Shown piece by piece: positions 211-60,370 of a stretch of 64,000 nucleotides of DNA (positions are counted from its first letter, which is position 1; each line of letters starts with the position of its first letter). The notes under the pieces are model-generated. The model saw nothing but the letters and a program-made list of their open reading frames with translations. It was not told the DNA's origin and made no database searches. Source of the DNA: Vicinamibacterales bacterium (GTDB lineage Bacteria > Acidobacteriota > Vicinamibacteria > Vicinamibacterales > UBA8438); contig CBDBMZ010000003.1 in assembly GCA_965207615.1 (NCBI GenBank), forward strand, positions 1,069,855 to 1,133,854, given 5' to 3'. Made by a program: the position numbers and the translations under genes.

Positions 211-541
211 GGCTCCTGGCCCGCCCATCGTCGCCTTCGGCTCCGCCGGGCGCCCAACCAATCCTACAGGAGTCCGCGCCGTTCCCGCGCAGACTCCTCG
301 CCCGCCCATCGTCGCCTTCGGCTCCGCCGGGCGCCCAACCAATCCTACAGGAGTCCGCGCCGTTCCCGCGCAGACTCCTCGCCCGCCCATCGTCGCCCTC
401 GGCTCCGCCGGGCGCCCAACCAATCCTACAGGAGTCCGCGCCGTTCCCGCGCAGACTCCTCGCCCGCCCATCGTCGCCTTCGGCTCCGCCGGGCGCCCAA
501 CCAATCCTACAGGAGTCCGCGCCGTTCCCGCGCAGACTCCT
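211..541 (+). repeat. tandem array of about 4.1 copies of an 81-bp unit (founding locus of the intergenic repeat family)
   Basis: CCGCCCATCG recurs at 221, 302, 383 and 464, a strict 81-bp period. The copies are identical except for one substitution near 398. The last unit overlaps the 3' end of udg. Confidence 0.95.
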
Positions 542-3257: not shown

Positions 3258-3345
3258 GCCCCTGGCCCGGGAACCGTCGCCCTCGGCTCCGATTCCCGCC
3301 CGACCGACCCGCCGGGAGCACGCATCGTTCCCACCGTGCGTTCTC

Positions 3346-4233
3346 CTATTCCACGTTCTGGACCTGCTCCCGCAGCTTCTCGAGCTCGGCCTTGGCCGTC
3401 ACCACGAGCTCGCTCGCGTCGGCGCCCTCCACCTTTGCGCCCAGCGTGTTGACCTCCCGGTTCATCTCCTGCAGGAGGAAGTCCAGCTTGCGGCCGCACG
3501 GCTCGGTCGAGCCGGTCAGGGCGGACCAGTGGGCGAGATGACCGCGCAGCCGGGTGATCTCCTCGCTGACGTCCGAGCGGGCCGCGAACCGCACGACCTC
3601 CTGGGCCACCGCCGCCTCCTCGATGCCGGCATGCCCCCGCAGCTCCTCGAGGCGGGTACCGAGCCGCGACACCAACTCGGCGCGCCCTGACTCGGCCGCC
3701 GCTTCCAGGTGGCCGACGAGGTCCGACAGGGTGCGGCACCGCGCCTCGAGGTCGGCCAGCAGGTACCCGCCCTCGCGCACGCGCATGGCGTCCAGATCGC
3801 GCAGCACCTCCTCGACCGCCGCGGTCGCGGCGCGCCCCAGCGCGGCCCGGCCCGCCTCGTCCAGCTCCAGCTCCTCGACCACGAGCGCCCGCGGGAACCG
3901 CAGGAGGTCGCCGGCGGTCAGGCCGCCGGTGGCGACACCCCGCGCACGGGCCTGCTCGACGGCGGCCGAGAGCGCGTCGACGAGCGGCTCGTTCAGGGCG
4001 ACCTCGACTTCGGGCTGCCCGAGAAGCCGGGCGGTCACCGCCAACTCGACGCGGCCGCGCGCCACCCAGCGCTGGACGGCGCCGCGCAACTCGACCTCGA
4101 CCGGCGCCAGCAGCGGCGGCAGCCGCACCTGGATGTCGAGGTAGCGGTGGTTGACGGTCCGCGCCGTGATGCCGAGGGCCGCCGTCTCGTGCTCCCGGCT
4201 ACCGGACGCGAACCCGGTCATCGACTTGATCAT
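3346..4233 (-). CDS. yicC: YicC-family stress-induced protein / endoribonuclease
   Basis: The N-terminus is MIKSMTGFASG and the C-terminus carries DVSEEITRL...KLDFLLQEMNREVNTLGAK. It is the C-terminal 295 aa of ORF 3346..5625. Its start overlaps the msbA stop (ATGA). Confidence 0.85.
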   Translation of the reverse strand: MIKSMTGFASGSREHETAALGITARTVNHRYLDIQVRLPPLLAPVEVELRGAVQRWVARGRVELAVTARLLGQPEVEVALNEPLVDALSAAVEQARARGVATGGLTAGDLLRFPRALVVEELELDEAGRAALGRAATAAVEEVLRDLDAMRVREGGYLLADLEARCRTLSDLVGHLEAAAESGRAELVSRLGTRLEELRGHAGIEEAAVAQEVVRFAARSDVSEEITRLRGHLAHWSALTGSTEPCGRKLDFLLQEMNREVNTLGAKVEGADASELVVTAKAELEKLREQVQNVE

Positions 4234-12628: not shown

Positions 12629-12833
12629 GGCGCAGACTCCGGGCCCGGGCGTTCCCGGGAAACGTCGGCCCGCCAATCGTCACCTTCGGCTACGCCGGGC
12701 GCCCAACCAACCCTCCAGCAGTCGGCGCCGTTCCACGGAAGCCGACTCCTAGCCCGCCAACCGTCGCCTTCGGCTCCGCTTGGCGCCCAACCAACCCTCC
12801 AGCAGTCGGCGCCGTTCTACGGCGCAGACTCCT
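12629..12833 (+). repeat. intergenic repeat family, about 2.5 units with an 84-bp period
   Basis: GCCCGCC recurs at 12668 and 12752. The 5' box and 3' hairpin are organised as at 211-541, in the same orientation. The array ends on the TAG of the TPR/SLH gene. Confidence 0.85.
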
Positions 12834-14169
12834 AGCGGGCCGATCCAGTCGCGCGGCCGAGGCGGGACAACACCGCCACCGCCTCACCGCCGGTGACCGG
12901 CAGGCCGGGCCGGAACGCGTTCCCGGGAAGCGGAGGCAGCAATCCAGCCGCGACCACCTCCGCCGCGGCCGGATGGTCGAGGTGTCCGGGATCCAGATCG
13001 GAGAACCGCGGCGACGCGGCCGGGGACACCGGCTCGACCCCGGCCCCGCGCAGCATCCGGACCAGGATGCGCGCGAGCTCCGCGCGGCTCACGACCTGGT
13101 CCGGCATGAACCGGTAGTTGACGTCGGCGGGCATGATTCCCGCTTGCGCCACGTCAATCATCCAGCCGTACGCCCAGTGATCGCGGGCGTCGGTGATGAT
13201 GGCGGCGCCGTCGCCGGCCAGACCGGCCAGCAGGAACTCGAACTGCACGCCCAGCAAGGCCGCGAGCTGCCCGCGGGTGACCGCGTCGGCCGCCTCGATG
13301 GCGCCGTACTCGCGCGGCAACGCGGCCGCCCGACGGCGCGCGTCCAGGTCCGCGAGGCGGCCCTCGACGCCGGCTCCGGGCGCGATGGCGTCGGCCCGGA
13401 GCAGCGCCTGCTCCGCGCGGTCGAGATCGCCGATAGCGAGATACAGATCGCCCATCCGCAGCCAGGCGTCGAGGGCATCCGGATCGAGGGCGACGGCGCG
13501 ATCGAGCCGGGCCAGGGCCGACCCGGCGCCGTCGACCCGACGCTCGACCTCGGCCAGCTCGAGGTAGAGGAACGCGGACTCGGGAGACGCCGCGATGAGC
13601 CGCTCGTAGGCTGCCTTCGCCTCGGCGTCCCGTCCCGCCGCGGCCGCTTCGCGGGCGGCCGTGACCTGCCGGGTCAGGGCCGTGGCCTCGAGTCCGGCGA
13701 GGCGCTGGCGCACGCCGGTCAGGCCGGGGTCGGCAGCGACGGCCGCGTTGAAGTCGTCGATGGCCTCGGCGAGCCGGTCCTCGACAAGGAGCGCCTCGGC
13801 CCGCCCCAGGCGCGCCGGCACGTAGTCCGAGACCCGGGCGACGGCCCCGTCGAACCGCGCGATTGCGCCGCCCGTATCACCCCGAGCCAGCGCGACGAAG
13901 CCGAGCCCCGTCATCGACGGATGAAACGACGGCATGTCGCGGAGGATGGCAGCGAACCGCTGCTCCGCGGCTTCGAGCTGTCCCGCCTGCAGGAACGCCC
14001 AGGCATCGCGGTGCTCGGCCGCCGCCGGGGTCCCCTCAAACGCGGCCGGCACGACCGGAAGCGGATAGTCGGGGTACGCCGGCGCGGTGACCACCGGCGC
14101 ACGGGTCGCGCAACCCGAAACCAGCGCGCCCACCGCGGCGACGACGACAGCCGCGCGCGCGTGCCTCAT
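12832..14169 (-). CDS. lipoprotein with TPR repeats and C-terminal SLH-like domains
   Basis: A lipobox (ALVSGC) is followed by TPR-like helices. The C-terminus has two segments resembling S-layer homology domains (ITDARDHWAYGWMIDVAQAGIM; FSDLDPGHLDHPAAAEVVAAGLL). Confidence 0.65.
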   Translation of the reverse strand: MRHARAAVVVAAVGALVSGCATRAPVVTAPAYPDYPLPVVPAAFEGTPAAAEHRDAWAFLQAGQLEAAEQRFAAILRDMPSFHPSMTGLGFVALARGDTGGAIARFDGAVARVSDYVPARLGRAEALLVEDRLAEAIDDFNAAVAADPGLTGVRQRLAGLEATALTRQVTAAREAAAAGRDAEAKAAYERLIAASPESAFLYLELAEVERRVDGAGSALARLDRAVALDPDALDAWLRMGDLYLAIGDLDRAEQALLRADAIAPGAGVEGRLADLDARRRAAALPREYGAIEAADAVTRGQLAALLGVQFEFLLAGLAGDGAAIITDARDHWAYGWMIDVAQAGIMPADVNYRFMPDQVVSRAELARILVRMLRGAGVEPVSPAASPRFSDLDPGHLDHPAAAEVVAAGLLPPLPGNAFRPGLPVTGGEAVAVLSRLGRATGSAR

Positions 14170-14248: not shown

Positions 14249-14326
14249 GGCGCCCTGCCCAATCCCATGGGGTGAGGTCGCGCACCGGCCGGCCGTTCGA
14301 TGCGCGGCGACCCGACCCGCCCGCGC
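14249..14326 (+). repeat. probable degenerate copy of the intergenic repeat family
   Basis: GGCGCCCtgCCCAATCCcatgg...GTCGCGC...CCGTTCgatGCGCG..GACcC..CCCGCCCG aligns by eye with the 81-bp unit in the same orientation. Confidence 0.4.
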
Positions 14327-21354: not shown

Positions 21355-21438
21355 CCTCCAAGCCCGTCAAGCGTCGCCCGCGGCTCCGCTGGGCGCCCAA
21401 CCAGTCCCTCCGAGAGCCGGCGCCCCGGAGCGGCGGGA
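21355..21438 (+). repeat. single, partly degenerate unit of the intergenic repeat family
   Basis: AGCCCGtCaAgCGTCGCCcgCGGCTCCGCtGGGCGCCCAACCAgtCC is followed by a weaker CTCCG...CGGAG hairpin. It lies between the dacC stop and the trxB start, in the same orientation as the other copies. Confidence 0.7.
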
Positions 21439-21440
21439 CA

Positions 21441-22385
21441 TCAGTCGGCGGCGGGCGAGAGCAGCACGCGGGCGCGGCGCGTAAGCCAGTCCACGAGGCG
21501 CCGTGTCTCCTGGAAGCGTCCCGCGTTGGATCGGGCCCCCAGCACGACCACCGAGACCGCGCGGTCACCGACCCTGATCAGCGTCGCCAGGCAGTAGCCC
21601 GCCTCGTTGATGTAGCCGGTCTTCCCCCCCACCACGTCCGGCCGGCTGTCGAGCAGGCGGTTGGTGTTGCGGACGACGCGGTTCTGACGGCTGGTGCTGA
21701 TGCGATGGGAGCGCTTGCGCATGATGCGCGCGATCTCGGGCTCGCGGCCGGCCGCCGCAATCAGCCGGGACACGTCGTGGGCGGACGACACGTTGCCCTC
21801 GTGCAGCCCCGACGGGTCCGTGAACCGCGTCTGCTCGAGTCCGAGCTCGGCCGCCATCGCGTTCATGCGGCTGATGAAGCGCTTCGTCCCCCACCGCGAT
21901 GCCCGCGCCAGCACGCGGGCGGCCACGTTGTCGGACGCCACGAGGGCGAGGTGGACGAGGTCGCGCAGGCTGACCCGCTCGCCCCGCCGCAGGTAGGTCG
22001 TCGACGCCCGGCGGACGTCGCGGCGCGAGATGACCACGTCGCGACTGAGATCGGGCTCCTGCTCGAGGAACAGCATCGCCGTCATCACCTTGGTGATGCT
22101 GGCGATGGGACGCGGCTCGCGCGCGTTCAGCTCCCACAGGGCGTCGCCGGTCACGGGATCGAAGACGATCGCCGCCGCGGCGCGCACACGCGGAGACGGA
22201 ACGCCCTGGACCGATGCAGCCGCTTCCGCGCTCTCCGCCGGCGCGCCGGCGGAGAGCGGCGCGGGCAGGACGGCGGTTAGGCACGCGAGCACGAGCGCGG
22301 CCAGGACGACGCCGCCCGGACGTGCGGAGGCCGCCGATGCGCGACTCCGCCTTCCGGATGTCACGGGTCCGGTGGGCTCAGGCAC
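21441..22385 (-). CDS. dacC: D-alanyl-D-alanine carboxypeptidase (peptidase S11, PBP5/6-like)
   Basis: A signal peptide is followed by SITK (SxxK), SDN (SxN) and KTG motifs. Confidence 0.8.
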   Translation of the reverse strand: MPEPTGPVTSGRRSRASAASARPGGVVLAALVLACLTAVLPAPLSAGAPAESAEAAASVQGVPSPRVRAAAAIVFDPVTGDALWELNAREPRPIASITKVMTAMLFLEQEPDLSRDVVISRRDVRRASTTYLRRGERVSLRDLVHLALVASDNVAARVLARASRWGTKRFISRMNAMAAELGLEQTRFTDPSGLHEGNVSSAHDVSRLIAAAGREPEIARIMRKRSHRISTSRQNRVVRNTNRLLDSRPDVVGGKTGYINEAGYCLATLIRVGDRAVSVVVLGARSNAGRFQETRRLVDWLTRRARVLLSPAAD

Positions 22386-28493: not shown

Positions 28494-28568
28494 GGGCCGC
28501 TAGCTCAGAGGTAGAGCACCTGACTTTTAATCAGATGGTCGCTGGTTCGATCCCAGCGCGGCCCACCA
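28494..28568 (+). tRNA. tRNA-Lys (anticodon TTT)
   Basis: The cloverleaf folds by hand: acceptor GGGCCGC/GCGGCCC, D arm GCTC-AGAGGTA-GAGC, anticodon loop CTTTTAA, T arm GCTGG-TTCGATC-CCAGC, with an encoded CCA. Confidence 0.9.
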
Positions 28569-30426: not shown

Positions 30427-30582
30427 CTGACACCTCCCTGGTGACGCCGACCCTGCCCCGGACCGACGGTCGGCCAGCTTGCGCTCGCGCAAATCGGCGC
30501 GCCGTCGGAACGCCAATCCCGCCGGCAAACGACGACCTGGCATTCTACCGCCTGCCGGCCGGCGGAAGGCGTCGCGGGGCCG

Positions 30583-31320
30583 CTAGCAGGCGGCGAGGCC
30601 GACGGCCCGGGGACGCCGGGACAGGCTCGCCGGCCCCGCCTGCGCCGGCGCGTCGCAGTCGCTCACGAACTCCTCGAGCGTGCCCAGCCACGCCTGGAAG
30701 TCGGCGTCCGCCGGCGCGCACAACCCGGCGTTGTCCTCTATCCGCAGCCGCCTGAGGTTCGGCAGGTTCATCAGGCTCCGCGGCAGCTCGCCGGTCAGCC
30801 GGTTCTGATGGAGCCTCAACTCGACGAGGTTCCCGAGGTTCGTCAACTGGTCCGGCACCGGGCCGCTCAGCGCGTTGTTGGAGAGGCGCAGTATCTCCAG
30901 GCTGGTCATGCTCCCCAGCGTGGCCGGGATCCCCCCGGCCAGGAAATTGTTGGAAAGGCGCAGGTCCGTGGCGCTCGTCAGCCGGCCCAGTTCGGGCGCG
31001 ATCGTCCCCCTCAGGTTGTTGCCGTCGGGACCGCACAGATCGAGCTTGCTGACGCGGTCGTTGGCGGTCTCCACCCCGTACCAGGTTCCGAGCGGTTCCT
31101 CGCTGAGCCAGTTGGTGGTGTCGGTCCAGTCGGGACCGCCCGCCGCATGGTACTGGGCCACGAGCGCGTCGCGTTCGGCCGTGGCAGGAGCGACGAGCCC
31201 GCTCGGTCCCGTCGGCAACCCGGCATCCTCCCCGCAGGCCGACATCGACGCCGCCAGGGCGCCGAGCACCGCGGTCGCGACGGCCCGCGCGCGCACGCGA
31301 CCAAACGTGGAGAGCGTCAT
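30583..31320 (-). CDS. lipoprotein with plant-specific-type leucine-rich repeats
   Basis: GGAGGAGG precedes the ATG at 31320, and a lipobox (SMSAC) is present. An N-cap-like WTDTTNWLSEEPLGTWYGVET is followed by four 24-residue repeats, LxGxIPxxLGxLxxLxxLxLxxNx. The C-terminus carries NAGLCAP. Confidence 0.75.
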   Translation of the reverse strand: MTLSTFGRVRARAVATAVLGALAASMSACGEDAGLPTGPSGLVAPATAERDALVAQYHAAGGPDWTDTTNWLSEEPLGTWYGVETANDRVSKLDLCGPDGNNLRGTIAPELGRLTSATDLRLSNNFLAGGIPATLGSMTSLEILRLSNNALSGPVPDQLTNLGNLVELRLHQNRLTGELPRSLMNLPNLRRLRIEDNAGLCAPADADFQAWLGTLEEFVSDCDAPAQAGPASLSRRPRAVGLAAC

Positions 31321-31464
31321 CGGGATCCTCCTCCGCCTCGACTGCGCAAGTCGATCGCAAGAGTCTACCAGCAGTGCCGACGCGGCCAGGAGCCCGTGGC
31401 GAATCCCCGGCTGCCTTCGAGTGGCGATGCATCTCGACGCGACGCGGGGTTTCACTACGGACTC

Positions 31465-34400
31465 CTACACCCTCTGTGCGGCCGCAAGGCGCTCGAACCA
31501 GAGCCACGCGACGCTGCAAACGAGGGCGGCGCCAAGAACCGCTCCCGGCAGGGCGCCGCCGTACGCCTGATCGAGGCCGCGGTCGAGCACGCCGGGAACG
31601 GTCATCGCGGCGGCGGCAAGCACCGCCAGGGCCGGTCGGTCACGGAGGATCCGCACGTAGGCCGCCAGCAGCAGCCCCCCGGCGAGGAGGCCCACGAACG
31701 CCCACGACGCAAGGTCGTCCGGCCTGGTGCCCGGCGCCAGCACCGCCCCCGCGAGGACCAGCGCCGCCCCCACCTCCGCCTTCCGGCGCGTCCAGTGCGC
31801 GGTGAGCCGGTTCGCGAGAGTGACCACCAGCATGGTCATCAGCGCGAGGACGAGATAGGTCTGCAGCGGCGCAACAACCGCGGCGAGCCAGGGAAAGATG
31901 GACGATGCCGGGTCATGCGCCGTCCAGGGCGGCAGGCCGCGGGCGGGCACGGCCTCGGCGACGGCGAGCGCACCGAGGACCCCCAGGCCGAGGGCCAGCC
32001 CCGTCACGACCGCGGACCGCCGGTCTTCCACCGTGCTCTCCTCCGCCGTCATCGGCCGGGCTCCCGCGAGCAATCCGAACAGGAGGGCGGTCACGCCCGC
32101 CCCGATCAGGCCGCCCACGAGCAGGATGCCGACCTGCAGCGGAAGCGGCTGCGCCGTGGACAGGCCGTGCATCAGCACCGGCCAGTCGTTCGCGAGGTCG
32201 ACGAAGGCGACCAGCAGCGAGAGCCCCGCGATGGCGAGGCCCAGCCGCAGGTCGAACGCCTTGCGGGTCATCCGCACCACCGCGAGCACCGCGCCCGCCA
32301 CCAGCAGCAGCCCGAGGACGATGGTCGAGGCGACGCCGCCGATCTGCAGGGTCGCCCGTCGCTGATCGTCCGCGCGGCGCCACGCCTCGGGCAGGAAGAG
32401 GTAGAAGCCCGTGTCGACGACCTCGTCGCCGGCAATCTCCACCGCCACTCGTGCCTCCCCTCCCGCGAGGTCGGGAACCGCCTCGTCGCGGAAGGTGAAG
32501 GTCCAGTCCGTGCGGGCCGGGCGGCTGGCCGACTCGGCCGAGACCTCGGGCAGGTCGGGCGCGCGGCCCCGACGGGCCAGCGCTTCGCGGGCCAGCGCCC
32601 GCGCGTCCTCCTCGGACAGCGCGACGCCCGGGGTCCCCTCCGCGAGCCGGTGCTCCCGCCGCCCCGGCGTCCCGTCCGAGGCGATCCACACGATGTGCTC
32701 CTCGGCCCGCTCCGCCACGTCGCCCTCGAAACGGGCGTAGCGCACGCGCCAGCGCGGGGCGGCCAGGTAGTCGCCGAGCAGCGCGCGGTGGACGTCCTCG
32801 CCCGCCTCGCTCCAGACGAAGCGGTGCTGCGGTCCGAGGCCGCCGAACACCCGACTCGTCTCCGTCCACGCCCCGGGGTCGATGCCCCGGCCGGCGAGCA
32901 CGCCGCGGGCCGCCGCCACCGCCTCGGCCCGGCCCACCGCGAGGCCCGGGGATTCGCTCGGCGTGACCGCCGTGTACGTCCAGAGCCCGAGCCCCAGAAC
33001 GCCGACCCCGGCAACCGCCGGCAATGCCGGCAGCGCGGCCGCCGTCCGTGCCGGCGCGGGCGGCGTCTCGGCGGGCGACTCTTCCGCCGGCGGGGTCCAG
33101 GCCCCGTTGCGCAGCCCCGCCGGCGCCTCGGTCCACGCCCCGCCCCGGTAGCGGGCGCGGAGGGTCACCCAGAGGGGCACGAGGAAGAGCAACCCGAAGA
33201 TTCCCTGGTCGATCCACGCGCCCGGCGCAGAGGACAGGAACAGCGGAATCCCGAACAGTACCGAATTGAACGCGAAGTGCAGGATGATGGCCGGCAGCAG
33301 GCCGAAGCGCAGGTAGAGCAGCCCAAAGATGGTCGACGGCACGATCAGCTCGACCACCCGCGCGTAGGAGGGCTGCGCGGGATAGGCGGCGTGGCCGGCC
33401 CCGAAGACGAGGATCTGCAGGACGAACGCCCCCGCGATCCAGGCTCGCCGGTTGCCGAACCGCTCCCCGATGAGGGCGGCGCCGGCCAGGGGCACGGCGC
33501 GGAAGAGGCACTCCTCCCAGAAGCCGGCCTGCAGCGAGGCGGCAAGCGGGGTGAGCCACGGCAGCACCGAGGCCAGCGAGTCGGGGTTGACGAGGGCGTC
33601 GGACGGCGACCACCAGCCCAGGTAGCCGACAGTGACCCAGTAGAAACCGACGACGAACGCGAGGTCGATGCCGACGATCAGGTAGCCGGCCACGGTCTGC
33701 CCCAGGACCGACCACGACCGCGCGCCCTCCCGGGACCAGCAGCGCCAGAACTGCAGGTGGTGCGGGAACGCCTGCCGCGACAGGCTCTCGGCGGCCATGA
33801 ACGAGAGCGTGTGGATGCCGGCGAACACCAGGAACAGGGCGACCTGCGCCGTCACCTGCTGGATCGCGAAGGCGGTCTCCGAGACCGCGGTGTCGTAGGC
33901 CATCCACAGCAGGGGCCACTGGTTGAGGCCCGCGAGAAGCTGCGCGAAGGCGATGGAGACGCCCCAGACGAGCGGCATGCGCCACAGCACGCGCCGCTGC
34001 CGCAGCAGGACGAAGAGCCCCACCGCGATGCCGCCGCCGTAGACGAGCAGCATGGCGAAGTTGCCGGCGATGGTGATGCCCTCGTTGGCCGAGCGCATCT
34101 CCTCGTAGCGCCGGTCGAAGGCCTCGGGCACCTGGAGGACGTGCGTCAGCTCCGTGAGCCGGTCGCCGCTGACGACGAGGCGCAGCCGGAACCGCCCCTC
34201 CCCCGCCTGCGCACCGGTCCGTTCGTAGACGAACGTGTGGTCGATGCGGCCGCCCTGACGCTCGGTCTGGGACGCCTCGACGGGGGCGTAGCCGTCGAGC
34301 GCGACGTTCCAGGGCTCGCCGGTACCGGCCTCGGCCACAGCCCGGGCCGCGTCGGCGTCGAGCGCCGCGCCCCCGGCGTCTTCCGCCAGCGTCTCACGGA

Positions 34401-36415: not shown

Positions 36416-37471
36416 ATGCAGCACCCAGGACCGCTCACCGCCCTGTCGAGCGCGGCCCTCGCCGCCGCCATGCTCGTCGCCCTGCCGCCGGCCGGGCTCG
36501 CCCAGGAACCGGCGTCGGACAGCCTCGACATCTACTGGATCGACGTCGAGGGCGGCGCCGCGACCCTCGTGGTGACCCCCGCCCGCGAATCCGTGCTGAT
36601 GGATACCGGCTGGCCGCGGCCCGACGCGCGCGACGCGTTGCGCATTCAGGCGGCCATGGACGACGCGGGCATCGACCGCATCGACTACATGCTCTTCTCT
36701 CACTTCCACGGCGACCACGTGGGCGGCCTGCCCGCGCTCGCCGAGCGGGTCGCGATCGGCCAGGTCGTCGACCACGGCGACAGCGTCGAGCTCGACCGGC
36801 CGCGCGGCCGGGCCCTGTGGGACGAGTACATCGGCCTCGCCGCCGACCGGCGCCGCTCGGTCGCCCCCGGCGACAAGCTGCCCCTCGAGCGCATCGAGCT
36901 GACGTTCGTGGCGTCGCACCGCGAGCTCGTCGACACCCTCGAGCCGCAGATGCCCAACCCGCTCTGCGACGGCGTCACGCCCCCCGACCCGGACATGGGC
37001 GAGAACGGGCACAGCCTGGGCTACCTGCTGTCGCTCGGGGCGTTCCAGTTCCTGAACCTCGGCGACCTGACTCCCGACCGCGAGCACGCGCTCGCGTGCC
37101 CCGAGAACCGGCTGGGGGTCGTCGACCTGTGGCAGGTGCCCCACCACGGCGGCTACGGGGCGATCCGCCCCGAGCTCGCGGCGGTGCTCCAGCCCACCGT
37201 GGCGGTCGTCAACAACGGCCCGCGCAAGGGGGGGACGCCGGAATCGCTGGCGGTGATTCAGAGCACGGCCGAAGTCGGCGACGTCTGGCAGTCGCACCGG
37301 ACGCTGACCGACGACGCCGCCAACAACACCGCCGAGGCCCTCATCGCCAACCTGACGGAGGAGGACGACTGCGAGGGGCACTGGATCAAGGCGACGGTGG
37401 CCCCCGACGGCCGGAGCTGGTCGATGACCAACGGCCGGACGGGCTACAGCCGCACCTATCGGTCCCGCTAG
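36416..37471 (+). CDS. secreted MBL-fold metallo-hydrolase (ComEC/Rec2 lactamase-like domain)
   Basis: A signal peptide is followed by the SHFHGDHVGG motif and a later VPHHG. The start is taken at MQHPGP. Confidence 0.75.
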   Translation: MQHPGPLTALSSAALAAAMLVALPPAGLAQEPASDSLDIYWIDVEGGAATLVVTPARESVLMDTGWPRPDARDALRIQAAMDDAGIDRIDYMLFSHFHGDHVGGLPALAERVAIGQVVDHGDSVELDRPRGRALWDEYIGLAADRRRSVAPGDKLPLERIELTFVASHRELVDTLEPQMPNPLCDGVTPPDPDMGENGHSLGYLLSLGAFQFLNLGDLTPDREHALACPENRLGVVDLWQVPHHGGYGAIRPELAAVLQPTVAVVNNGPRKGGTPESLAVIQSTAEVGDVWQSHRTLTDDAANNTAEALIANLTEEDDCEGHWIKATVAPDGRSWSMTNGRTGYSRTYRSR

Positions 37472-37625
37472 CCCGCCCACCGTTGCCCGCGGCTCAGCCG
37501 AGCGCCAACCAACGCCGCCAGGAGTCCGCCATTCTACGGCGCCGACTCCTGGCCCGCCCACGTCGCCTGCGGCTCCGCCGGGCGCCCAACCAACTCCGCC
37601 AAGAGTCGTTCCGCGGAGTCGGGAG
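37470..37625 (+). repeat. intergenic repeat family, 2 units with an 81-bp period
   Basis: GCCCGCCCAC recurs at 37471 and 37552. The first unit has an intact AGGAGTC...GACTCCT hairpin and the second is decayed. The array begins on the TAG of the MBL gene. Confidence 0.85.
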
Positions 37626-37671: not shown

Positions 37672-38022
37672 ATGAACACCGACACGAAGGCAGTCATCGG
37701 GACCATCGTCGGAACGGGACTGGCGATCGCCGGCCTGCTCGTGACCCAGATTGCCGGCGTGAACACCCGCATCGACGACGTGAACATCCGCATCGGCGAC
37801 CAGAACACGCGATTCGACGCTCGCTTCGACGACGTCGACACGCGATTCGACGACGTCAACACGCGATTCGACGACGTCAACGCGCGATTCGAACGCATGG
37901 AGTCCCGCCTCGACGGCCTGGACGAACGGTTGCGCAGCGTCGAGGTCGCGCTGGCGAGGGTCGCCCAGCGCCTCCTGACCATCGAGCGCGTGGTGCTCCC
38001 CGGACCGGAGCCCGGCCGGTAG
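37672..38022 (+). CDS. membrane-anchored coiled-coil protein with tandem heptad (21-bp) repeats, hypothetical
   Basis: An N-terminal TM helix (AVIGTIVGTGLAIAGLLVTQIAG) is followed by NTRIDDV NIRIGDQ NTRFDAR FDDVDTRFDDVNTRFDDVNARFERMESRLDGLDERL. It is the C-terminal 116 aa of ORF 36817..38022. Confidence 0.6.
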   Translation: MNTDTKAVIGTIVGTGLAIAGLLVTQIAGVNTRIDDVNIRIGDQNTRFDARFDDVDTRFDDVNTRFDDVNARFERMESRLDGLDERLRSVEVALARVAQRLLTIERVVLPGPEPGR

Positions 38023-46010: not shown

Positions 46011-46112
46011 CCCGAGCGGAACGCGCCGCCTGCGCAGCACGTGGGGGGGGCGGAGGCCGCCGACGCGAGACCGCCGTCGTCCCGGAGCGGGCCGGCGCCC
46101 CGTCCAAACCGG

Positions 46113-46150
46113 CCGGGAGTCCAAGTCGTTCCTAAGGCGCGGACTCCCGG
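46113..46150 (+). repeat. hairpin module of the intergenic repeat family
   Basis: CCGGGAGTCC-aagtcGTTCCtaaggcgc-GGACTCCCGG forms a 10-bp stem. The loop carries the TAG of the abiEii-like gene. Confidence 0.7.
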
Positions 46151-46959
46151 CCCCGGATCTGCGGCCACGCCCCGCCCACACGGCCGCGATGGAACCGCAA
46201 GCGGTTCGCCGCTTCCGCCTCTGCCAGTTCCTCCGCGTCGCCCGTGAACAGCGTCGCGGACTGCGTCAGCACCGCTTCACCGACGTGCCCCGCCGGCAGC
46301 AGGTCAATCATCGCCCCGGCCCGGTCCAGGACGCCGCGCCATTGCCGCGACAGGTCCGACGCGCTGGGGGGCGGCCCGTCGAAGGCGAGCGACGCCAGCT
46401 CGTCGGCCGAGTAGCGGGACGAGCGGCGGGCCTGGGCGAGAATGCCGCCCGGCGTAGAGCCGGGGTCCTTGCCGCACGCCGCCCAGGCCAGACAGCCCAA
46501 CGGCTGCAGGCGGGCGTCGCAGGCCAGCACGTCCACCCAGTCGCGCGCCTCGAGCCGCCCGACGAGGGCCAGCACCTTGTTCGTGGCGAGGTCGAAGGGA
46601 TGCAGGGCCAACCCCAGGTCGTCGTCCTCGACCAGGGGAAAGAAGCGGAACGCACTGTCACGCGTCCATTCCATGACCAGACGGTCCGCCCCGCGTGAGA
46701 CCGCCGCCTCGACATAGCCGGGACGCTCGCGCAACGCCGTGACCACGAATCCAGCCGAGTCGAGGGCGAGGCGGTCGCGGTCCCACGACCGCGCCACCGC
46801 CTCGGTCGTGTCGTGGAACAGATCGACGTCCCGGGAGAGTCGGTGGGAACGGAGGGCGACGCTCAGCGCCACGCCGAGGGCCACGTAGCTGTCGCGGTGG
46901 CGGCGCCGGCCGTCCGCTAGCCAGCGGCAGACGTCTCGCTGGAGCGGCGTGAGAGCCAT
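46132..46959 (-). CDS. nucleotidyltransferase, AbiEii/AbiGii (MenT, DUF1814) toxin family
   Basis: The N-terminal NTase motif region is YVALGVALSVALRSHRLSRDVDLFHD (compare GGTAL...R.S.DiDlf). The size is about 275 aa, and the operon context fits the family. Confidence 0.6.
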   Translation of the reverse strand: MALTPLQRDVCRWLADGRRRHRDSYVALGVALSVALRSHRLSRDVDLFHDTTEAVARSWDRDRLALDSAGFVVTALRERPGYVEAAVSRGADRLVMEWTRDSAFRFFPLVEDDDLGLALHPFDLATNKVLALVGRLEARDWVDVLACDARLQPLGCLAWAACGKDPGSTPGGILAQARRSSRYSADELASLAFDGPPPSASDLSRQWRGVLDRAGAMIDLLPAGHVGEAVLTQSATLFTGDAEELAEAEAANRLRFHRGRVGGAWPQIRGRESAP

Positions 46960-48073: not shown

Positions 48074-48106
48074 GACATGCCCCAGCCCGTCGTCCGGCCG
48101 GGAGAG

Positions 48107-48178
48107 CGTCGCCTCCGGCGCCGCTCCCGCCCAACCGACCCGGGCAGGAATCGGCACCGCTACCGCGGCGCAGACTCC
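48107..48178 (+). repeat. full-length single unit of the intergenic repeat family
   Basis: CGTCGCCTcCGGcgCCGC...CCCAACCgAcC...CAGGAaTCgGCaCCGcTaCCGCGgCGCAGACTCC aligns along the whole 81-bp unit in the same orientation. Confidence 0.75.
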
Positions 48179-48267
48179 AGGCGCTGACCCTCGAGCTCCT
48201 CCAGCGCCGGCAGCAAGGCATAGCGGACCCAGGTGAACCCGGGTTCGAGGTCGAGCGCCTGCTCGTA

Positions 48268-49038
48268 CTAGCGCCGCGCGGCGGCGAGGTCGTCGCGCTC
48301 GACGTTGATCTGCCCGAGCCAGGCGTAGGTGTCCATCAATCCCCAGCGGGGCCACGGGCGGTCGCGCGGCTCGGTGCGAAACGCGGCCAGAGCCCGGAGC
48401 AGCATGGCCTCGGCCCGATCCGCGCCCCCGCCGAACATGCCCGGCGTGTGCAGCTTGCCGACGCCGTCCTGCAGCAGGACCCGCGGGTTGCCGGGGGCGA
48501 GTTCCAGGGCCCGCGCGGACGCACGCGACGCCCGCCGGCCGAGGGTCATCCCCTTCCAGGCAGAGTCTATCTGCATGCCGTAGACGCTGGCCAGCAGCGC
48601 GTGCGACTCAGCGTTCCCGTCGTCGACCTCCAGGTCGCGGGTCAGCAGCTCCACGGCGTCGTCGAGCAACGCGGCCCGGTCGTCGGCGGGCACGCCGTCG
48701 GGGACCGTGAACAGCCGCCAGTTCACGTAGGCGGCCGTGTATCGCGTGATGGACCTCTGGCTTTCGGTCAGGCTGGCGTCGAGCAGCCCCCCGAGATCGG
48801 CCCGCACGGCCAGCAGTTCGGGGCCGTCTCCCAGCCCGTACGCCCGCTCCAGCCGCTCGATCAGGGCCGGGAACGTCTCGTCGAAGGCGCCCTGAGCGCC
48901 GGCCGGCGCCGGCGCCGGAACGAGGGACGTGCACGCGACGGCCGCGGCCAGGATTCGTTTCATTCGAGCTCGGCGCGATGCCGACTGGCCCGGTCGGGGC
49001 GGGTTCCCGGCGCGTTGAACGCATTTCTCCAGTTTCAT
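48268..49038 (-). CDS. secreted TPR-like helical protein, apparently truncated by an in-frame TAG
   Basis: GGGAGGTG precedes the ATG at 49038, and an alternative start is MKRILAAA at 48963. A signal peptide and helical repeats are present. The frame continues coding-like for 35 codons beyond the TAG at 48268-48270. Confidence 0.55.
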   Translation of the reverse strand: MKLEKCVQRAGNPPRPGQSASRRARMKRILAAAVACTSLVPAPAPAGAQGAFDETFPALIERLERAYGLGDGPELLAVRADLGGLLDASLTESQRSITRYTAAYVNWRLFTVPDGVPADDRAALLDDAVELLTRDLEVDDGNAESHALLASVYGMQIDSAWKGMTLGRRASRASARALELAPGNPRVLLQDGVGKLHTPGMFGGGADRAEAMLLRALAAFRTEPRDRPWPRWGLMDTYAWLGQINVERDDLAAARR

Positions 49039-51586: not shown

Positions 51587-53392
51587 TCAGCCTTGGCCCC
51601 AGCCGCACGAGCGGCCGGTGTTCTGCTCGTCGAGCCACGCCTGGAGGGGCGCGAAGTAGTCGAGGATGGCGGTGGCGTCCATCTCGCGCTCGCCGGTGCC
51701 CAGCTCCAGCGCGTCCCGCCAGGGGCGGCTCGCGCCGGCTTCCAGCATCGCCTGCAGCCGCTCCCCCGCCGCCCGGCTGCCGTAGATCGAGCAGCGGTGC
51801 AGCGGCCCCTCGTGGCCGGCCGCCTCGCACAGGGCCCGGTGGAACTGGAACTGCAGGATGTGGGCGAGGAAGTAGCGCGTGTAGGACACGTTGGCGGGGA
51901 CGTGATACTTGGCGCCGGGATCGAAATCGGCCTCGCTGCGCGGCGCGGGGGGGCTGACGCCCTGGTACGCCGTCCTGAGATTCCACCAACCCTCGTTGTA
52001 GGCATCGGGCGGAATCTCGCCGGAGAAGACCTGCCAGCGCCACTGATCGACGAGCAGGCCGAAGGGCAGGAACGCGACCTTGTCGAGCGCCAGCCGCAAG
52101 AGCAGCCCGATGTCGCCGTCGACCCGCGGCGCCCGACGCAGCAGCCCCACCTCCAGAAGATACTCGGGGGTCATGGAGAGGGCGATGGTGTCTCCGATGC
52201 CCTCGTGGAAGCCGTCGTGGGCCCCGTCCCGATCGAGCGGCGTCTGGTGCCGGTAGGCGCGCTGGTAGTAGTTGTGGCCGAGCTCGTGGTGGACGGTGAC
52301 GAAGTCCTCGCCGTTCACGTCGAGGCACATCTTGATGCGCACGTCCGAGTCGTAGTCGAGGTTCCAGGCGCTGGCGTGACAGACCACGTCGCGGTCCGGG
52401 GGCTGGACGAACAGCGACCGCTCCCAGAACGTGTCCGGCAGCGGGTCGAACCCGAGCGAGCTGAAGAAGCGCTCTCCGTAGCGCACCATCTCGATCTCGC
52501 CGACGTCCGCGTCGTCGAGCAGGTCGGTGAGGTCGTAGCCGGGGTCGGCCCGCCGGGGGGCCGCGAGATCGAAGACGTTGCCCCACGTCTGGCTCCACAT
52601 GTTGCCGAGGAGATGGGCGGGTATCGGGCCGTCGGGGGGGACGATGGCCGAGCCGTACTCGTCGGCGAGGGAGGCGCGCACGTGGCAGTGCAGCGACTCG
52701 TAGAGGGGGCTGACCTGGCCCCAGAGGCGCTCGAGCTCGGCCGTGAACGCGTCGGGGGGCATGTCGTATCCGGTCCGCCACAGCTCGCCGAGGTCGGCGA
52801 AGCCGAGATCGCGGGCCCCCGCGTTGGCGAGCTCGACGAAACGGGCGTAGGCGTCGCGCATCGGCGGGGCCACCGTCCGCCAGCCGAGCCAGAGGTCGAG
52901 CAGCTCGTCGGTGTCGCGGACCTCGGCCAGACGCCGCTCGAGCTCGGGCAGCGACAGGCACGCGTCGCCGCCCTCGGGGCAGTACTCGCCCCGTCCGTAG
53001 GCGGCCTCCATCCCCGTGGTGATGGACGCGAGCTCGGCCTGCAGGGCCGGGTCCGCGGGCGCCGCCACCCCCAGCGACGTCTTCAGCCGCAGCAGCTTGC
53101 GCCGCAGGTCCTCCGGAAGCTCGACCCCGTCGAACCGCGCCGCCTCGGCAGCGAGCTCCATGGTGAGGCCGATGACCGCGGCCTGCGCTTCGGCGGCCTG
53201 CGCCGTGGTGTCCCCGGTGATGTAGGTGCTCTGTATCCAGGCCGCCCGCCCCGTGGCTACCCACGCGTCGAGCAGCCGGGCTTCCGCGTCGACGAGAAAC
53301 GTGCGGGCCTCGTCGGCGGTCGGTGGAGGCTCGCCGCCGCACGCGGCGGCGAGCACCGCGAGCATGCCGGCGAACCGCGTGATCCGAGTCAT
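51587..53392 (-). CDS. peptidyl-dipeptidase A (angiotensin-converting-enzyme-like, peptidase M2) lipoprotein
   Basis: A lipobox (LAAACGG), HHELGH and the downstream HEGIGD glutamate are present. The product is 601 aa, and its start overlaps the purA stop. Confidence 0.85.
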
Positions 53393-54735
53393 CAACGGCT
53401 TGCCTCCCCCGCGACGACCGGCCGCGCCACCGCCCGCTCGGCCTGCCACCGCTCGACGAGCCCCCCGCGCACCAGGATGGTGTCGGCCCGATCGGAACCG
53501 GTCGAGACGATGGCGATCGGCACCCCGCTCAGGGTTTCGATGCGGGCCAGATATGCCTGCGCCTCGGTCGGCAGATCCTCGTAGCGGCGCACGCCCGCGG
53601 TGGGCCGCGACCAGCCCGGCAGGCGCTCGTACACCGGCCGGCACTCGTCGAGCACCGTGCGGCTCGACGGAAACTCCTCGAGCAGGCGATCCCCATAGCG
53701 ATAACCCGTGCACAGCGGGATCTCGTCGAGGCCGTCCAGCACGTCGAGCTTGGTGACCGCGAGCGCGTCGAGGCCGTTCACGCGCACCGCGTAGCGCACC
53801 ACCACCGCGTCGTACCAGCCGCACCGGCGGGGGCGCCCGGTCGAGGCGCCGTACTCGCGGCCGCTCTCCCGCAACAGGTCGCCCTCGGCGCCGTGCAACT
53901 CCGTCGGCAGCGGTCCCTCGCCGACCCGGGTCGTGTAGGCCTTGGCGATGCCGAGGACCGAGCCGATGGCGCGGGGGCCGATGCCGAGGCCGGTGCAGAT
54001 GCCGCCGACCGTCGCGCTCGACGAGGTGACGAACGGGTAGGTCCCGTGATCGATGTCGAGCTGGGTCCCCTGGGCGCCTTCGAACAGCACGCACTCCCCC
54101 GCCTCGAACGCCCGCGCGAGGAACACCGACGCGTCGCCGACCCAACCCTGCAGGCGGCGCGCCGCCGCGCACACCTCGGCGTGGAGCGCCCGCCAGTCGG
54201 CCGCCGCGCCCCCCAGCGCCTCGTTGCGGGCCGAGACGTTCGCGCGGATGGCCGAGGCGAGCGCGCCGTCCTCCGACGCGTCCGCGAGGTCGGCCACGCG
54301 GATGCCGCGGCGCCCTACCTTGTCCTCGTAGGTCGGCCCGATGCCCCGCGAGGTGGTGCCGATGCGCTGGTCGCCGCGCCGCGCCTCGGAGTGCGCCTCG
54401 AGGTCACGGTGGTAAGGCAGGATGACGTGGGCCCGGTCGCTGATGAGCAGGCGGTCGCCGACCTCGATGCCCTGCCCGGCGAGGGTGTCGATCTCCGAGA
54501 ACAGGGCAACCGGATCGACCACCACCCCGTTGCCGATGACGCAGCGCACCCCCGGGTGCAGGATGCCGGAGGGCAGCAGGTGGAGGATGAACTCGGTCTC
54601 GCCCACCCGCACCGTGTGACCCGCGTTGTGGCCACCCTGATAACGCGCCACAATGGACGCGCTCGGGGTGAGGAGGTCCACGACCTTGCCCTTGCCCTCG
54701 TCGCCCCACTGCGCACCGATGACCGCGATGTTCAC
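53392..54735 (-). CDS. purA: adenylosuccinate synthetase
   Basis: The GTG start gives VNIAVIGAQWGDEGKGKVVD. GHNAGHTV and TTSRGIGPTYEDK are present. Confidence 0.9.
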   Translation of the reverse strand: MNIAVIGAQWGDEGKGKVVDLLTPSASIVARYQGGHNAGHTVRVGETEFILHLLPSGILHPGVRCVIGNGVVVDPVALFSEIDTLAGQGIEVGDRLLISDRAHVILPYHRDLEAHSEARRGDQRIGTTSRGIGPTYEDKVGRRGIRVADLADASEDGALASAIRANVSARNEALGGAAADWRALHAEVCAAARRLQGWVGDASVFLARAFEAGECVLFEGAQGTQLDIDHGTYPFVTSSSATVGGICTGLGIGPRAIGSVLGIAKAYTTRVGEGPLPTELHGAEGDLLRESGREYGASTGRPRRCGWYDAVVVRYAVRVNGLDALAVTKLDVLDGLDEIPLCTGYRYGDRLLEEFPSSRTVLDECRPVYERLPGWSRPTAGVRRYEDLPTEAQAYLARIETLSGVPIAIVSTGSDRADTILVRGGLVERWQAERAVARPVVAGEASR

Positions 54736-54926: not shown

Positions 54927-55994
54927 ATGCGCTTGACTGCACGGCTCCCGACGAAACGAAGGCTCCTTGCGGCCCTGGACGCGACGCCGACGCGCATGCC
55001 CGTCGTCGTCGGCGGCTGCGGGAGCGGCCGCACGTCTCTCCTGCAGCGTCTGCGGGAACGGCTCGGACCGGCGACCGTGCTGGTCGACCTCGAACGGGTC
55101 GCCACGACTCCCGAACGCTGCCTGTCGTCGGTGCTCGGGGCCCTGCGCGGGCACGCGGTGTCCCGGGACGGCGGCGCGCCCACGCCGGGCGAGCCGCGGG
55201 CCGCGTTCGATCGCCTCTGCCACCTCTTCACCCGCGCACAGGGCGCGGGCGGCGGCCCGGTCACGTTTCTCATCGACGAGATGCTCGAGATCCGAACGTT
55301 CGAGAGCTTCCCCGGGTTGCGGAACGCCTTCGCGATGTTCCGGCGGTCGCTCTGCGACAGCCCGAACCGGTTCGTCCTCACGACCCGGTTCGCGGCCCGC
55401 GCGGTGCGCCTTTTCAGCGACGCCCCCGGTCCGTTCGAGTTCGTCCATCTCCCGCCACTGACGCCCGCCGAGGTCCGAACCGCGCTCGCCGGCCTCGGCC
55501 TCGACGAGGCGGAGCACCGGCGGCGGGACACGGCGGGGCTCGTGCACGCCCTGACGGGGGGACGACCGCGCTACGTTCGCCTCCTCGCGGAGACCGCGGC
55601 CGCGCACGGAGGCAACCCGGTCGACGCCCTCGCCGCCGGGATGCGTCCCGGCGCGCATCTCGACACCGCGTGTCGGCTCTCGCGCGAGTTGCGGCTGCAC
55701 CGGGCCCGCGGGCGAGGGGCGCTCGGAGCCATCCTCCACGTCCTCGCCGCCGACGAGCCGTTGACGTTGACGGAGATCGCCACCCGCCTCGGACGCACGC
55801 CGGGGGCCGCCCGCGCCTACCTGGCCTCGCTACGGGACGTCGACCTGATCGAAACCCGCCTGAGGAGCTACCGCTACGTCGACCCGCTGCTGCGGCTCTG
55901 GGCGGGCCTGCACGGACAGGCGACTCCCCCGGACTACGAGACGCTGTCCCGCGGCGCGCGCGAATACGCGGCGGCCCGCGTCGCGGTGCTCTAG
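54927..55994 (+). CDS. ATPase (archaeal-ATPase/ORC-like AAA fold) with C-terminal winged-helix; Walker A lysine replaced by arginine
   Basis: The Walker A is GGCGSGRTSLL, the Walker B is TFLIDEM, and the C-terminus carries PLTLTEIATRLGRTPGAARAYLASL. Confidence 0.6.
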   Translation: MRLTARLPTKRRLLAALDATPTRMPVVVGGCGSGRTSLLQRLRERLGPATVLVDLERVATTPERCLSSVLGALRGHAVSRDGGAPTPGEPRAAFDRLCHLFTRAQGAGGGPVTFLIDEMLEIRTFESFPGLRNAFAMFRRSLCDSPNRFVLTTRFAARAVRLFSDAPGPFEFVHLPPLTPAEVRTALAGLGLDEAEHRRRDTAGLVHALTGGRPRYVRLLAETAAAHGGNPVDALAAGMRPGAHLDTACRLSRELRLHRARGRGALGAILHVLAADEPLTLTEIATRLGRTPGAARAYLASLRDVDLIETRLRSYRYVDPLLRLWAGLHGQATPPDYETLSRGAREYAAARVAVL

Positions 55995-56002
55995 CCGCTT
56001 CG

Positions 56003-56045
56003 AGGAGCCCGCACCACTCTACGGCGCGGCCTCCCGGCCCGCCCC
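56003..56045 (+). repeat. hairpin module plus start of the next 5' box of the intergenic repeat family
   Basis: AGGAGCCCGCACCACTCTACGGCGCGGCCTCCCGGCCCGCCCC aligns with the family unit. The TAG of rnc lies in the TCTACGG loop. Confidence 0.6.

Positions 56046-60293: not shown

Positions 60294-60370
<77 letters not shown>

Follow-up and report, generated by a model that had tools for sequence, protein, structure and literature searches.

In the GTAG-tagged superfamily of repetitive extragenic palindromes (REPs), the termini of the repeats often supply the TAG stop codon of flanking open reading frames (ORFs), and copies can also be arranged head to tail (Di Nocera et al. 2013, PMC3733652). For REPIN-RAYT systems, persistence across related species is reported. 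Here we describe a repeat whose nearest described behavior is that of the GTAG-tagged REPs. It occurs in a 64,000-nucleotide stretch of the genome of a Vicinamibacterales bacterium (contig CBDBMZ010000003.1; G+C content 71.8%), which as a whole we call the window, and it includes a four-unit array behind the gene for a uracil-DNA glycosylase (UDG). We consider it probable that this element, ~84 nt long in general and 81 nt in that array, is a non-coding, REP/MITE-like, TAG-targeting, non-autonomous mobile repeat of a Vicinamibacterales clade. On the G-rich strand, the reverse complement of the one that a first-pass annotation of the window had written, each ~84-nt unit consists of a YAG triplet, hairpin A, the linker GGAGGGUUGGUUGGG, hairpin B and a final GGC-YAG.

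Like REPs and BIMEs, the element combines short GC-rich imperfect palindromes, many copies just outside genes and covariation in its stems. Among the stop codons that it touches, 91 of 98 are TAG, against a background of 32% TAG and 66% TGA at the same loci, which recalls the termini-supplied TAG stops of the GTAG-tagged superfamily (PMC3733652). However, it differs from REPs in its composite 84-nt unit, which combines a conserved linker with two distinct hairpins whose order is fixed; in carrying the tag CYAG rather than GTAG or CGTC; in forming arrays that are exclusively direct repeats, not the alternating or inverted pairs of REPINs and BIMEs; and in being strongly tied to gene direction. 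Additionally, no RAYT was found in the ~1.5 Mb of sequence plus the window that we searched with approximate queries. A second likeness is to the miniature elements of the IS200/IS605 insertion sequences (PATE-type, with Y1 HUH TnpA): terminal inverted repeats (TIRs) are absent, a different hairpin lies near each end, the junction falls exactly 3′ of a short one-strand target (TAG), the end of the element repeats that target, and one strand carries the structure. The differences here are that the element shows no replication-strand bias beyond that of the genes themselves (by a weak proxy) and that no TnpA or TnpB partner was found in the same ~1.5 Mb and the window; the hairpins of IS608 also lie much farther from the ends than those of our element.

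The MIRU minisatellites of mycobacteria are direct tandem arrays of 40–100 bp units in the intergenic regions of operons, oriented with the genes, overlapping stop codons and varying in copy number between relatives. A MIRU-type unit has a length that is a multiple of three and contains a small ORF that overlaps the neighboring stop and start codons. Our element shares the direct intergenic arrays, the variable copy number, the gene orientation and the overlap with stop codons, but its units are spaced 80–86 nt apart (mode 84, with 82 and 83 common, and 81 in the window array) and are dominated by two strong hairpins. As the spacing is not restricted to multiples of three, no reading frame is carried, and we rejected a coding minisatellite on the same family-wide ground. 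Finally, the pneumococcal BOX, rhizobial RIME, ERIC and Correia-type elements are modular intergenic repeats of ~80–200 bp with stable structure that are co-transcribed with adjacent genes, some with tandemly amplified modules. Our element is likewise a modular, structured, intergenic repeat with tandem amplification, but it has no sequence relation to any of these and is without the TIRs of ERIC and Correia elements. To our knowledge, this group neither targets TAG stop codons nor shows a strong coupling of orientation to genes. The first-pass annotation had proposed an intergenic repeat family of the REP/BIME/MITE kind, dispersed, rich in hairpins and open to tandem amplification, and our analysis agrees; since the features of REPs (tag, inverted pairs) and MITEs (TIRs) that we tested fail, however, "REP/MITE-like" refers to behavior and not to membership. 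We would file the element as a new variant among the small non-autonomous hairpin repeats, outside any named family.

The family reaches well beyond the window. A scan of a species-representative genome collection with the core pattern CGGCTNCGCNNGGCGCCCAACCA returned at least 112 matching stretches, all but one of them labeled as Vicinamibacterales, Vicinamibacteria or Acidobacteria metagenome-assembled genomes (MAGs); our family-wide counts rest on the matches listed, among which at least 27 genomes (MAG assemblies) carry the family. Chromosome-level assemblies with the repeat include OY760734.1, OZ242323.1, OZ244051.1 and OZ242003.1. A locus from Falsiroseomonas was rejected as a carrier, being a chance match to the pattern without a unit. 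An nhmmer profile run over the 112 loci and the window gave 245 matches, and the 198 of these that score at least 30 bits merge into 147 arrays: 112 singletons, 23 doublets, 9 triplets, 2 quadruplets and 1 quintuplet, the last in OZ244051.1. The linker is conserved at 70–99% even in units without the search pattern, and because units that lack an exact match to the pattern are conserved equally over their whole length, the conservation is not an artifact of ascertainment. Copies do not cluster by genome, with identity of 0.860 within genomes versus 0.852 between them. Neighboring units within arrays resemble each other more than randomly chosen pairs do (median identity 0.91 versus 0.82, with 7 of 43 adjacent pairs at least 97% identical), from which it follows that arrays grow mainly by local duplication and then diverge.

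No family in Rfam 15 matches the repeat: two tRNAs are all that the whole window gives at gathering thresholds, and a search of positions 150–650 with E-values up to 10 gives noise only. Hairpin A has no matches in a viral contig collection, and the searchable literature holds no description of such repeats in Vicinamibacterales. The Rfam and literature results accord with the initial remark that the sequence was not recognized as a described family. Judged from these searches, the element represents an undescribed small hairpin-forming repeat family of one clade of soil Vicinamibacterales.

How the copies lie relative to genes can be read from the 134 arrays at the 112 loci that we classified by their flanking genes, using our own codon-usage (codon log-likelihood) gene caller; 13 further arrays at locus edges were left out. 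Between co-directional genes, the unit as first written is antisense in 72 arrays and sense in 14, a split that by our own arithmetic is about six standard deviations from parity. A further 31 arrays lie between convergent genes, 12 between divergent genes and 5 inside a called gene, leaving 129 of the 134 outside called genes. The written 3′ end abuts the stop codon of the gene on the opposite strand, with distances clustering at −2 to −5 and a second cluster at −16 to −19; the reverse complement therefore starts at the stop of the upstream gene and runs in the mRNA sense. In this gene sense, the boundary consensus is GGC-YAG^GAGTC…GGGCGGGC-YAG^(G/C), where ^ marks the boundary, and the base before YAG is C in 80 and G in 24 of 113 first units, which defines the tag CYAG. 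The orientation bias could arise from an asymmetric target (3′ of a sense TAG, with survival mainly at stops) or from selection on the transcript.

Within the window, the unit at seven of the eight loci directly follows the stop codon of a gene on the minus strand, namely UDG, yicC, a TPR/SLH gene, a D-Ala-D-Ala carboxypeptidase gene, an AbiEii-like gene, an unannotated gene and the RNase III gene. The first-pass annotation had observed that all copies share one orientation, which holds for every significant covariance model (CM) match in the window, but had taken that orientation to be kept whatever the strand of the flanking genes. These seven loci and the family-wide 72:14 split contradict the latter point; the uniform plus orientation of the written unit arises because minus-strand genes predominate locally. 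Nor are the copies placed strictly between genes, as had been thought: very often they contain the stop codon of the flanking gene.

Two observations on the boundary triplet and on TAG stops may be added. The triplet at the 5′ boundary is polymorphic, TAG in 52 cases versus CAG in 57 (for example at 216–218 and 540–542), giving CTAGG or CCAGG. CCWGG is a Dcm/Vsr-type site, and it is a speculative suggestion on our part that 5-methylcytosine deamination or very-short-patch repair drives this polymorphism. The TAG share of 32% holds even among genes without contact to an element; it seems high for 72% G+C and might in part reflect decayed insertions.

Both inverted-repeat modules noticed at first pass are present and fold. 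Hairpin A is a 14-bp stem, AGGAGUCUGCGCCG / CGGCGCGGACUCCU, with the loop UAGAA, and hairpin B has the form CGCCCA.CG..GCC-loop-GGC..CG.UGGGCG, with a symmetric GA/GA (tandem G·A) internal loop and with GNA or GNNA loops, e.g. GCAA. Our structure statistics come from an alignment of 140 distinct units in gene sense in which the two hairpins are stated explicitly; counting the pairs of this stated structure replaced RNAalifold, which on a gappy MAFFT alignment had returned a consensus of −2 kcal/mol. Across the 140 units, 94.9% of cells are paired and 10 pairs show double-sided changes. The covariation score is 0.142 versus 0.085 ± 0.003 for shuffled alignments, with 0 of 500 shuffles reaching the observed value, and pairing drops to 33–51% in slid controls. 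Hairpin A (helices 1–2) is 93–94% paired, with double changes in 7 pairs, and hairpin B (helices 3–4) is 95–98% paired. For example, pair 74–105 is CG in 64 units, AU in 37, GU in 18 and GC in 6, and in the subfamily that includes the copy at 3260–3354 the outer stem CGCCCA/UGGGCG has been replaced, in fully compensatory fashion, by CGGGAA/UUCCCG. G·U pairs number 180 on the gene-sense strand versus 59 on the other; 144 of the 180 fall at four subfamily-defining positions, and all four of these high-frequency wobbles are G·U on that strand. In our reading, propagating sequences are constrained to fold on the gene-sense strand, and most inserted copies then drift. The strand written at first pass is the complement of the mRNA-sense strand that bears the G·U-tolerant stems of the propagating sequences.

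The array behind UDG allows an insertion to be compared with empty sites. Tandem Repeats Finder (TRF) describes positions 209–541 as 4.1 copies of period 81 with 98% matches (score 645), and CCGCCCATCG starts exactly at 221, 302, 383 and 464. Just as first reported, the four copies differ internally by a single substitution, T to C at 398; in our own alignment, pairwise identity is 96.5–98.8%. The CM spans 214–548 and scores the four units at 92, 38, 59 and 92 bits. We fetched 80 orthologous loci with the UDG protein, and thus independently of the repeat: nhmmer finds a unit in only 5 of the 80 and behind UDG in none. In six relatives (L113–L118, ~85–93% nucleotide identity), the UDG gene ends as …GAGTCCGC(N)3-6 TAG G and continues straight into a short spacer before priA, whereas the window at the same position reads …GCTCGG-CAG-GAGTC… and continues through four units, CAG with a degenerate partial hairpin A (190–215) and the native spacer. 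The array is missing from the orthologous site in these six and in one further genome (L084). Carriers of the family include the genomes of L113–L118, L135 and L154, and ~70 Acidobacteriota genomes showed no copy at the loci fetched with UDG. Comparison of the empty and occupied sites identifies the native TAG as the 5′ junction. As this TAG has turned into CAG (540–542), the frame runs on for 11 codons to the linker TAG of the first unit (507–509), where the UDG ORF (507–1385) now ends, and relative to the six relatives the protein carries 11 additional residues encoded by the repeat. We read the four-unit array, from these alignments, as a very recent local expansion and a lineage-specific insertion at the UDG stop codon. 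The proposal that it founds the family fails, the orthologous site being array-free in six related genomes.

Turnover of this kind is general. Many of the loci that bear repeats in different genomes are orthologous to one another. In 19 of 25 orthologous site comparisons the partner genome is empty, with 2–26 nt in the partner versus 100–384 nt at the occupied site in the clean cases, and this emptiness in sister species leads us to conclude that the element is, or recently was, mobile. The remaining 6 of the 25 sites are occupied in both genomes, with different copy numbers (1 vs 3, 1 vs 2). In the cleanest pair, the empty site in L035 reads GC-TAG-CGCGA and the occupied site in L054 reads GC-TAG-[GAGC…CCGGGC-TAG]-CGCGA, which fits a TAG duplication and an element-borne TAG alike; the 3′ junctions of other pairs are untidy. 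Where a comparison is informative, its 5′ junction falls exactly at TAG^GAGTC. The window is without the copies that relatives carry at ~17294, 30573 and 31379, and it alone, compared with its relatives, carries those at 215–543 and 12667–12837. Some insertions are old, as judged from a copy common to several species: the one behind yicC (3260–3354) is found at the same site in L113 (54.5 bits), L116 (51 bits) and L117 (33 bits). Both hairpins survive in these orthologous copies despite divergence, one T-A pair having been replaced by C-G in a compensatory change and further G·U pairs having arisen in gene sense.

Three sites preserve traces of earlier or partial events. One other genome (L057) is empty at the site of the window's array at 12667–12840 but keeps a remnant. 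Half of a hairpin A (GGAGYCTGCGCC) remains at 12629–12640, just past the two-unit array, and also at ~1612–1680 in L057; its presence at the otherwise empty site indicates that an older, decayed copy at the same gene end predated the present insertion. In another comparison (L017 2946–3034 versus L038 4068–4086), the "empty" site keeps TAG and ~35 nt resembling the 3′ end of the element (…GGCGATTTGCCGGGCGGGC), and this element-like residue suggests that in some cases an element is lost through an internal deletion and not by being excised precisely. At L044 5097–6341 (OZ220718.1), an LRR-protein gene lies between inverted elements, one unit on one side and three units on the other; its orthologue in the window (30583–31320; region 30573–31478) has neither element.

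Taken together, these comparisons show that the element integrates at or after a TAG, mostly that of a gene's stop codon, and once inserted forms the first sequence of the gene's 3′ untranslated region (UTR) or intercistronic region in the mRNA sense. Sites come and go between closely related species, and resident copies become head-to-tail arrays mainly by local duplication, most copies then drifting. Under the reading that we favor, propagation would need both hairpins to be formed on one strand, a requirement that would point to a hairpin-recognizing enzyme acting in trans on single-stranded nucleic acid; this could be, for example, a RAYT or an IS200/IS605-type HUH tyrosine transposase, the nearest precedents being RAYT with REPs and TnpA with IS200/IS605 ends. 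Once transcribed, the GC-rich hairpins may act as barriers to 3′ exonucleases or to read-through, as REP elements do, and such a role would explain the retention of hairpins in at least one old copy. We infer this RNA-level role by analogy with REPs; what supports it is where the element lies, how it is oriented and that one old orthologous copy has kept its hairpins.

A number of observations weigh against a mobile repeat of this kind, and those on the mobilizing enzyme, the replication strand and the tag weigh against the HUH class in particular. Opposite-strand pairs of elements within 3.5 kb number only 8, none adjacent, and the genes between inverted copies encode LRR, SDR, NHL and ABC proteins, with no mobilizer among them. 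Distant pairs of hairpin A and hairpin B, sought with half-models in genomes sampled in part, yielded two candidates, which involve phosphodiesterase and TRAP-transporter genes only. tblastn searches of ~1.5 Mb with approximate RAYT and IS200 TnpA queries gave no Y1-like match, only spurious matches to MetH and PriA. The genes of the window are those of an ordinary chromosome and include no transposase. A replication-strand bias would be expected from lagging-strand targeting of the IS200/IS605 type; the folded strand is on the G-rich strand in 42 of 72 arrays (58%) versus 65% of genes, as judged by 8-kb skew, a noisy proxy, and strand plotted along chromosome position reveals no replichore pattern. 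The tag is CYAG, not GTAG. The similarity of within-genome and between-genome identities is unusual for lineage-specific bursts and would fit constraint by a conserved partner equally well. The strand argument also has limits: G·U is not in excess among the scattered stem mutations (36 G·U vs 51 A·C), the z-scores relative to shuffles are similar for the two strands (−3.3 to −3.9), and the lower minimum free energy of the gene-sense strand is largely compositional. The evidence for the folded strand therefore rests on the four subfamily positions and on gene orientation.

Among the alternatives, the one that survives best, although we hold it to be unlikely, is that the element is a structured RNA selected by the host, that is, a functional 3′-UTR or intercistronic module (protein-binding, processing, terminator or stabilizer) that selection holds close to a single consensus in different species and whose spread, through recombination or duplication and not a dedicated transposase, is secondary. 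Placement in the mRNA sense directly after stop codons is what such a module would show, but ~20% of copies are antisense to a gene end or unlinked from one. The whole 84 nt, unpaired linker included, is conserved across at least 27 genomes, with identity within genomes close to that between them, and hairpins are kept with compensatory change in old orthologous copies; yet the copies adjoin unrelated housekeeping genes and are mostly missing from the orthologous sites of sister species, so that no gene-specific function is conserved. The strand features are typical of RNA (G·U at the high-frequency positions, GNA/GNRA-like loops and the tandem G·A loop), whereas the scattered mutations lack a wobble bias, Rfam has no match, and no U-tract follows either hairpin as read from the sequence, which also led us to reject an intrinsic terminator.

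A bolder proposal, which we regard as rather doubtful, is that of a novel TIR-less, strand-specific element that homes to TAG stops and places the same 3′-UTR module, two hairpins and a G-rich linker, on hundreds of unrelated genes of one bacterial order, with a conserved enzyme or RNA-binding partner holding the consensus. Quite improbable, in our estimation, is a classical cut-and-paste MITE mobilized by a DDE transposase that duplicates TAG, CTAG or TA (as in the IS5/PIF-Harbinger or IS630 groups). YAG stands at both ends, the clean empty/occupied pair is exactly what a 3-bp TAG duplication predicts, and size, non-coding nature and insertion polymorphism fit as well, but the element has no TIRs, only 2 of 10 positions agreeing between its ends GAGTCTGCGC and reverse-complemented GCCCGCCCAT; if the target were palindromic or duplicated, orientation relative to genes should be random, where we observe 72:14; and no parent insertion sequence was found in 1.5 Mb. 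That the four-copy array is an assembly artifact, or else a minisatellite confined to this site and with no tie to a mobile family, is highly improbable: short reads make near-identical tandem copies difficult to assemble, but arrays of 2–5 units occur in many assemblies labeled as whole chromosomes (e.g. the 5 units of OZ244051.1), and the same unit is present at 8–9 loci in the window and in at least 27 genomes. CRISPR arrays were rejected for want of spacers, and integron attC sites because the consensus has no RYYYAAC/GTTRRRY cores, the window has no integrase, and the flanks are dispersed housekeeping genes.

Covariance model R1 was run without filters over the full length of the window, with blastn and nhmmer also used for dispersed copies, and the CM finds ~13 units at 8–9 loci (Table 1). 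Of the dispersed loci listed in the first-pass annotation, the CM recovers the six lying between 12667 and 56042 in the table; a supposed degenerate copy at 14249–14326 drops out, scoring 10.9 bits (E = 1.3), which is noise level. Conversely, the copy behind yicC and the partial fifth hairpin at the end of the UDG array had been missed. The copy at 37466–37616 is in the minority orientation: the TAG stop of the gene at 36416–37471 lies inside the CTAG at the other end of the element.

Table 1. Units, parts of units and associated genes of the repeat family in the window
Feature	Position	Strand	Support and context
Head-to-tail array, four 81-nt units	462-542, 381-461, 300-380, 219-299	minus	TRF and CM
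Order within each array unit		minus	YAG, hairpin A, G-rich linker, hairpin B
Hairpin A, first unit, gene-sense AGGAGUCUGCGCGGGAACGGCGCGGACUCCU	511-541	minus	Recurs at 430-460, 349-379, 268-298
Hairpin B, first unit	465-495	minus	Recurs at 384-414, 303-333, 222-252
Hairpin B in the array, gene-sense CGCCCG.CG.GA.GCC-GAA-GGC.GA.CG.A.UGGGCG			Tandem GA/GA internal loop
Unpaired conserved linker, gene-sense GUAGGAUUGGUUGGG	496-510	minus	Family consensus G(G)AGGGUUGGUUGGG
Former UDG stop, 5′ insertion junction	540-542	minus	TAG in six relatives, CAG in the window
CAG and degenerate truncated fifth hairpin A	190-218	minus	Hairpin at 190-215; priA-side end of array; comparison with empty sites
UDG family gene	507-1385	minus	Pfam PF03167, E = 3.8e-40
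Single old diverged unit	3260-3354	minus	CM 63 bits; directly behind TAG stop of yicC (3346-4233)
Two 84-nt units	12667-12840	minus	CM 105 and 55 bits, TRF period 84; behind TAG stop of TPR/SLH gene 12832-14094
Single unit, hairpin A degraded	21357-21435	minus	CM 43.7 bits (21357-21421), nhmmer; behind stop of D-Ala-D-Ala carboxypeptidase gene 21441-22187
Full unit and truncated unit	37466-37616	minus	CM 62 and 20.5 bits (37466-37599); between two plus-strand genes
Degenerate unit	46064-46155	minus	CM 24 bits, E = 0.0026; between convergent genes, overlaps stop of 46132-46959
Diverged single unit	48092-48186	minus	CM 45.6 bits; downstream of 48268-48963
Solo hairpin A	55989-56042	minus	CM 31 bits; half-model 56001-56037; overlaps stop of RNase III gene 56019-56990
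Doubtful weak match	62160-62242		CM 22.7 bits, E = 0.005; inside and antisense to acyl-CoA dehydrogenase gene 60581-62377

The doubtful match in the acyl-CoA dehydrogenase gene may be a chance match or an ancient intragenic copy. Elsewhere in the window, tandem repeats of 21 bp and 54 bp (TRF 75–135) lie at 37758–37892, inside a small plus-strand gene (37672–38022) whose product has weak coiled-coil matches (DUF7310, XhlA); they are probably coding repeats of the heptad type and have nothing to do with the hairpin family. A minus-strand gene at 51587–53395 encodes a full-length bacterial homologue of angiotensin-converting enzyme (Peptidase_M2, 712 bits). The tRNA-Lys(TTT) and tRNA-Met(CAT) genes, at 28494–28568 and 60294–60370, have no repeat unit adjoining them.

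As a type of object the element is ordinary, in a phylum that is poorly explored; what is unusual is its homing to TAG stops and the fixed two-hairpin module that recurs across an order. The Vicinamibacterales abound in soil and are for the most part uncultured, and the architecture of their genomes has been little studied. The density of one locus per 7–10 kb, in the window and in a few repeat-independent loci of carrier genomes, extrapolates to several hundred loci per 6.5–7 Mb genome, an estimate and not a count, and at that level the family would be a major intergenic component. The element rewrites gene ends, as with the 11 residues added to UDG, and the family accounts for many of the "odd" 3′ gene ends and tandem repeats that annotators meet in these MAGs. 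Possible uses are as strain-typing markers in the manner of variable-number tandem repeats and as a clean natural system in which to study the homing of a small element to stop codons. A mobilizing enzyme, if found, would extend the REP-RAYT or IS200/IS605 picture to a new phylum and a new element architecture. If the proposal of a stop-homing 3′-UTR module is true, these bacteria would possess a counterpart of the 3′-UTR elements derived from short interspersed elements (SINEs), with possible post-transcriptional consequences genome-wide.

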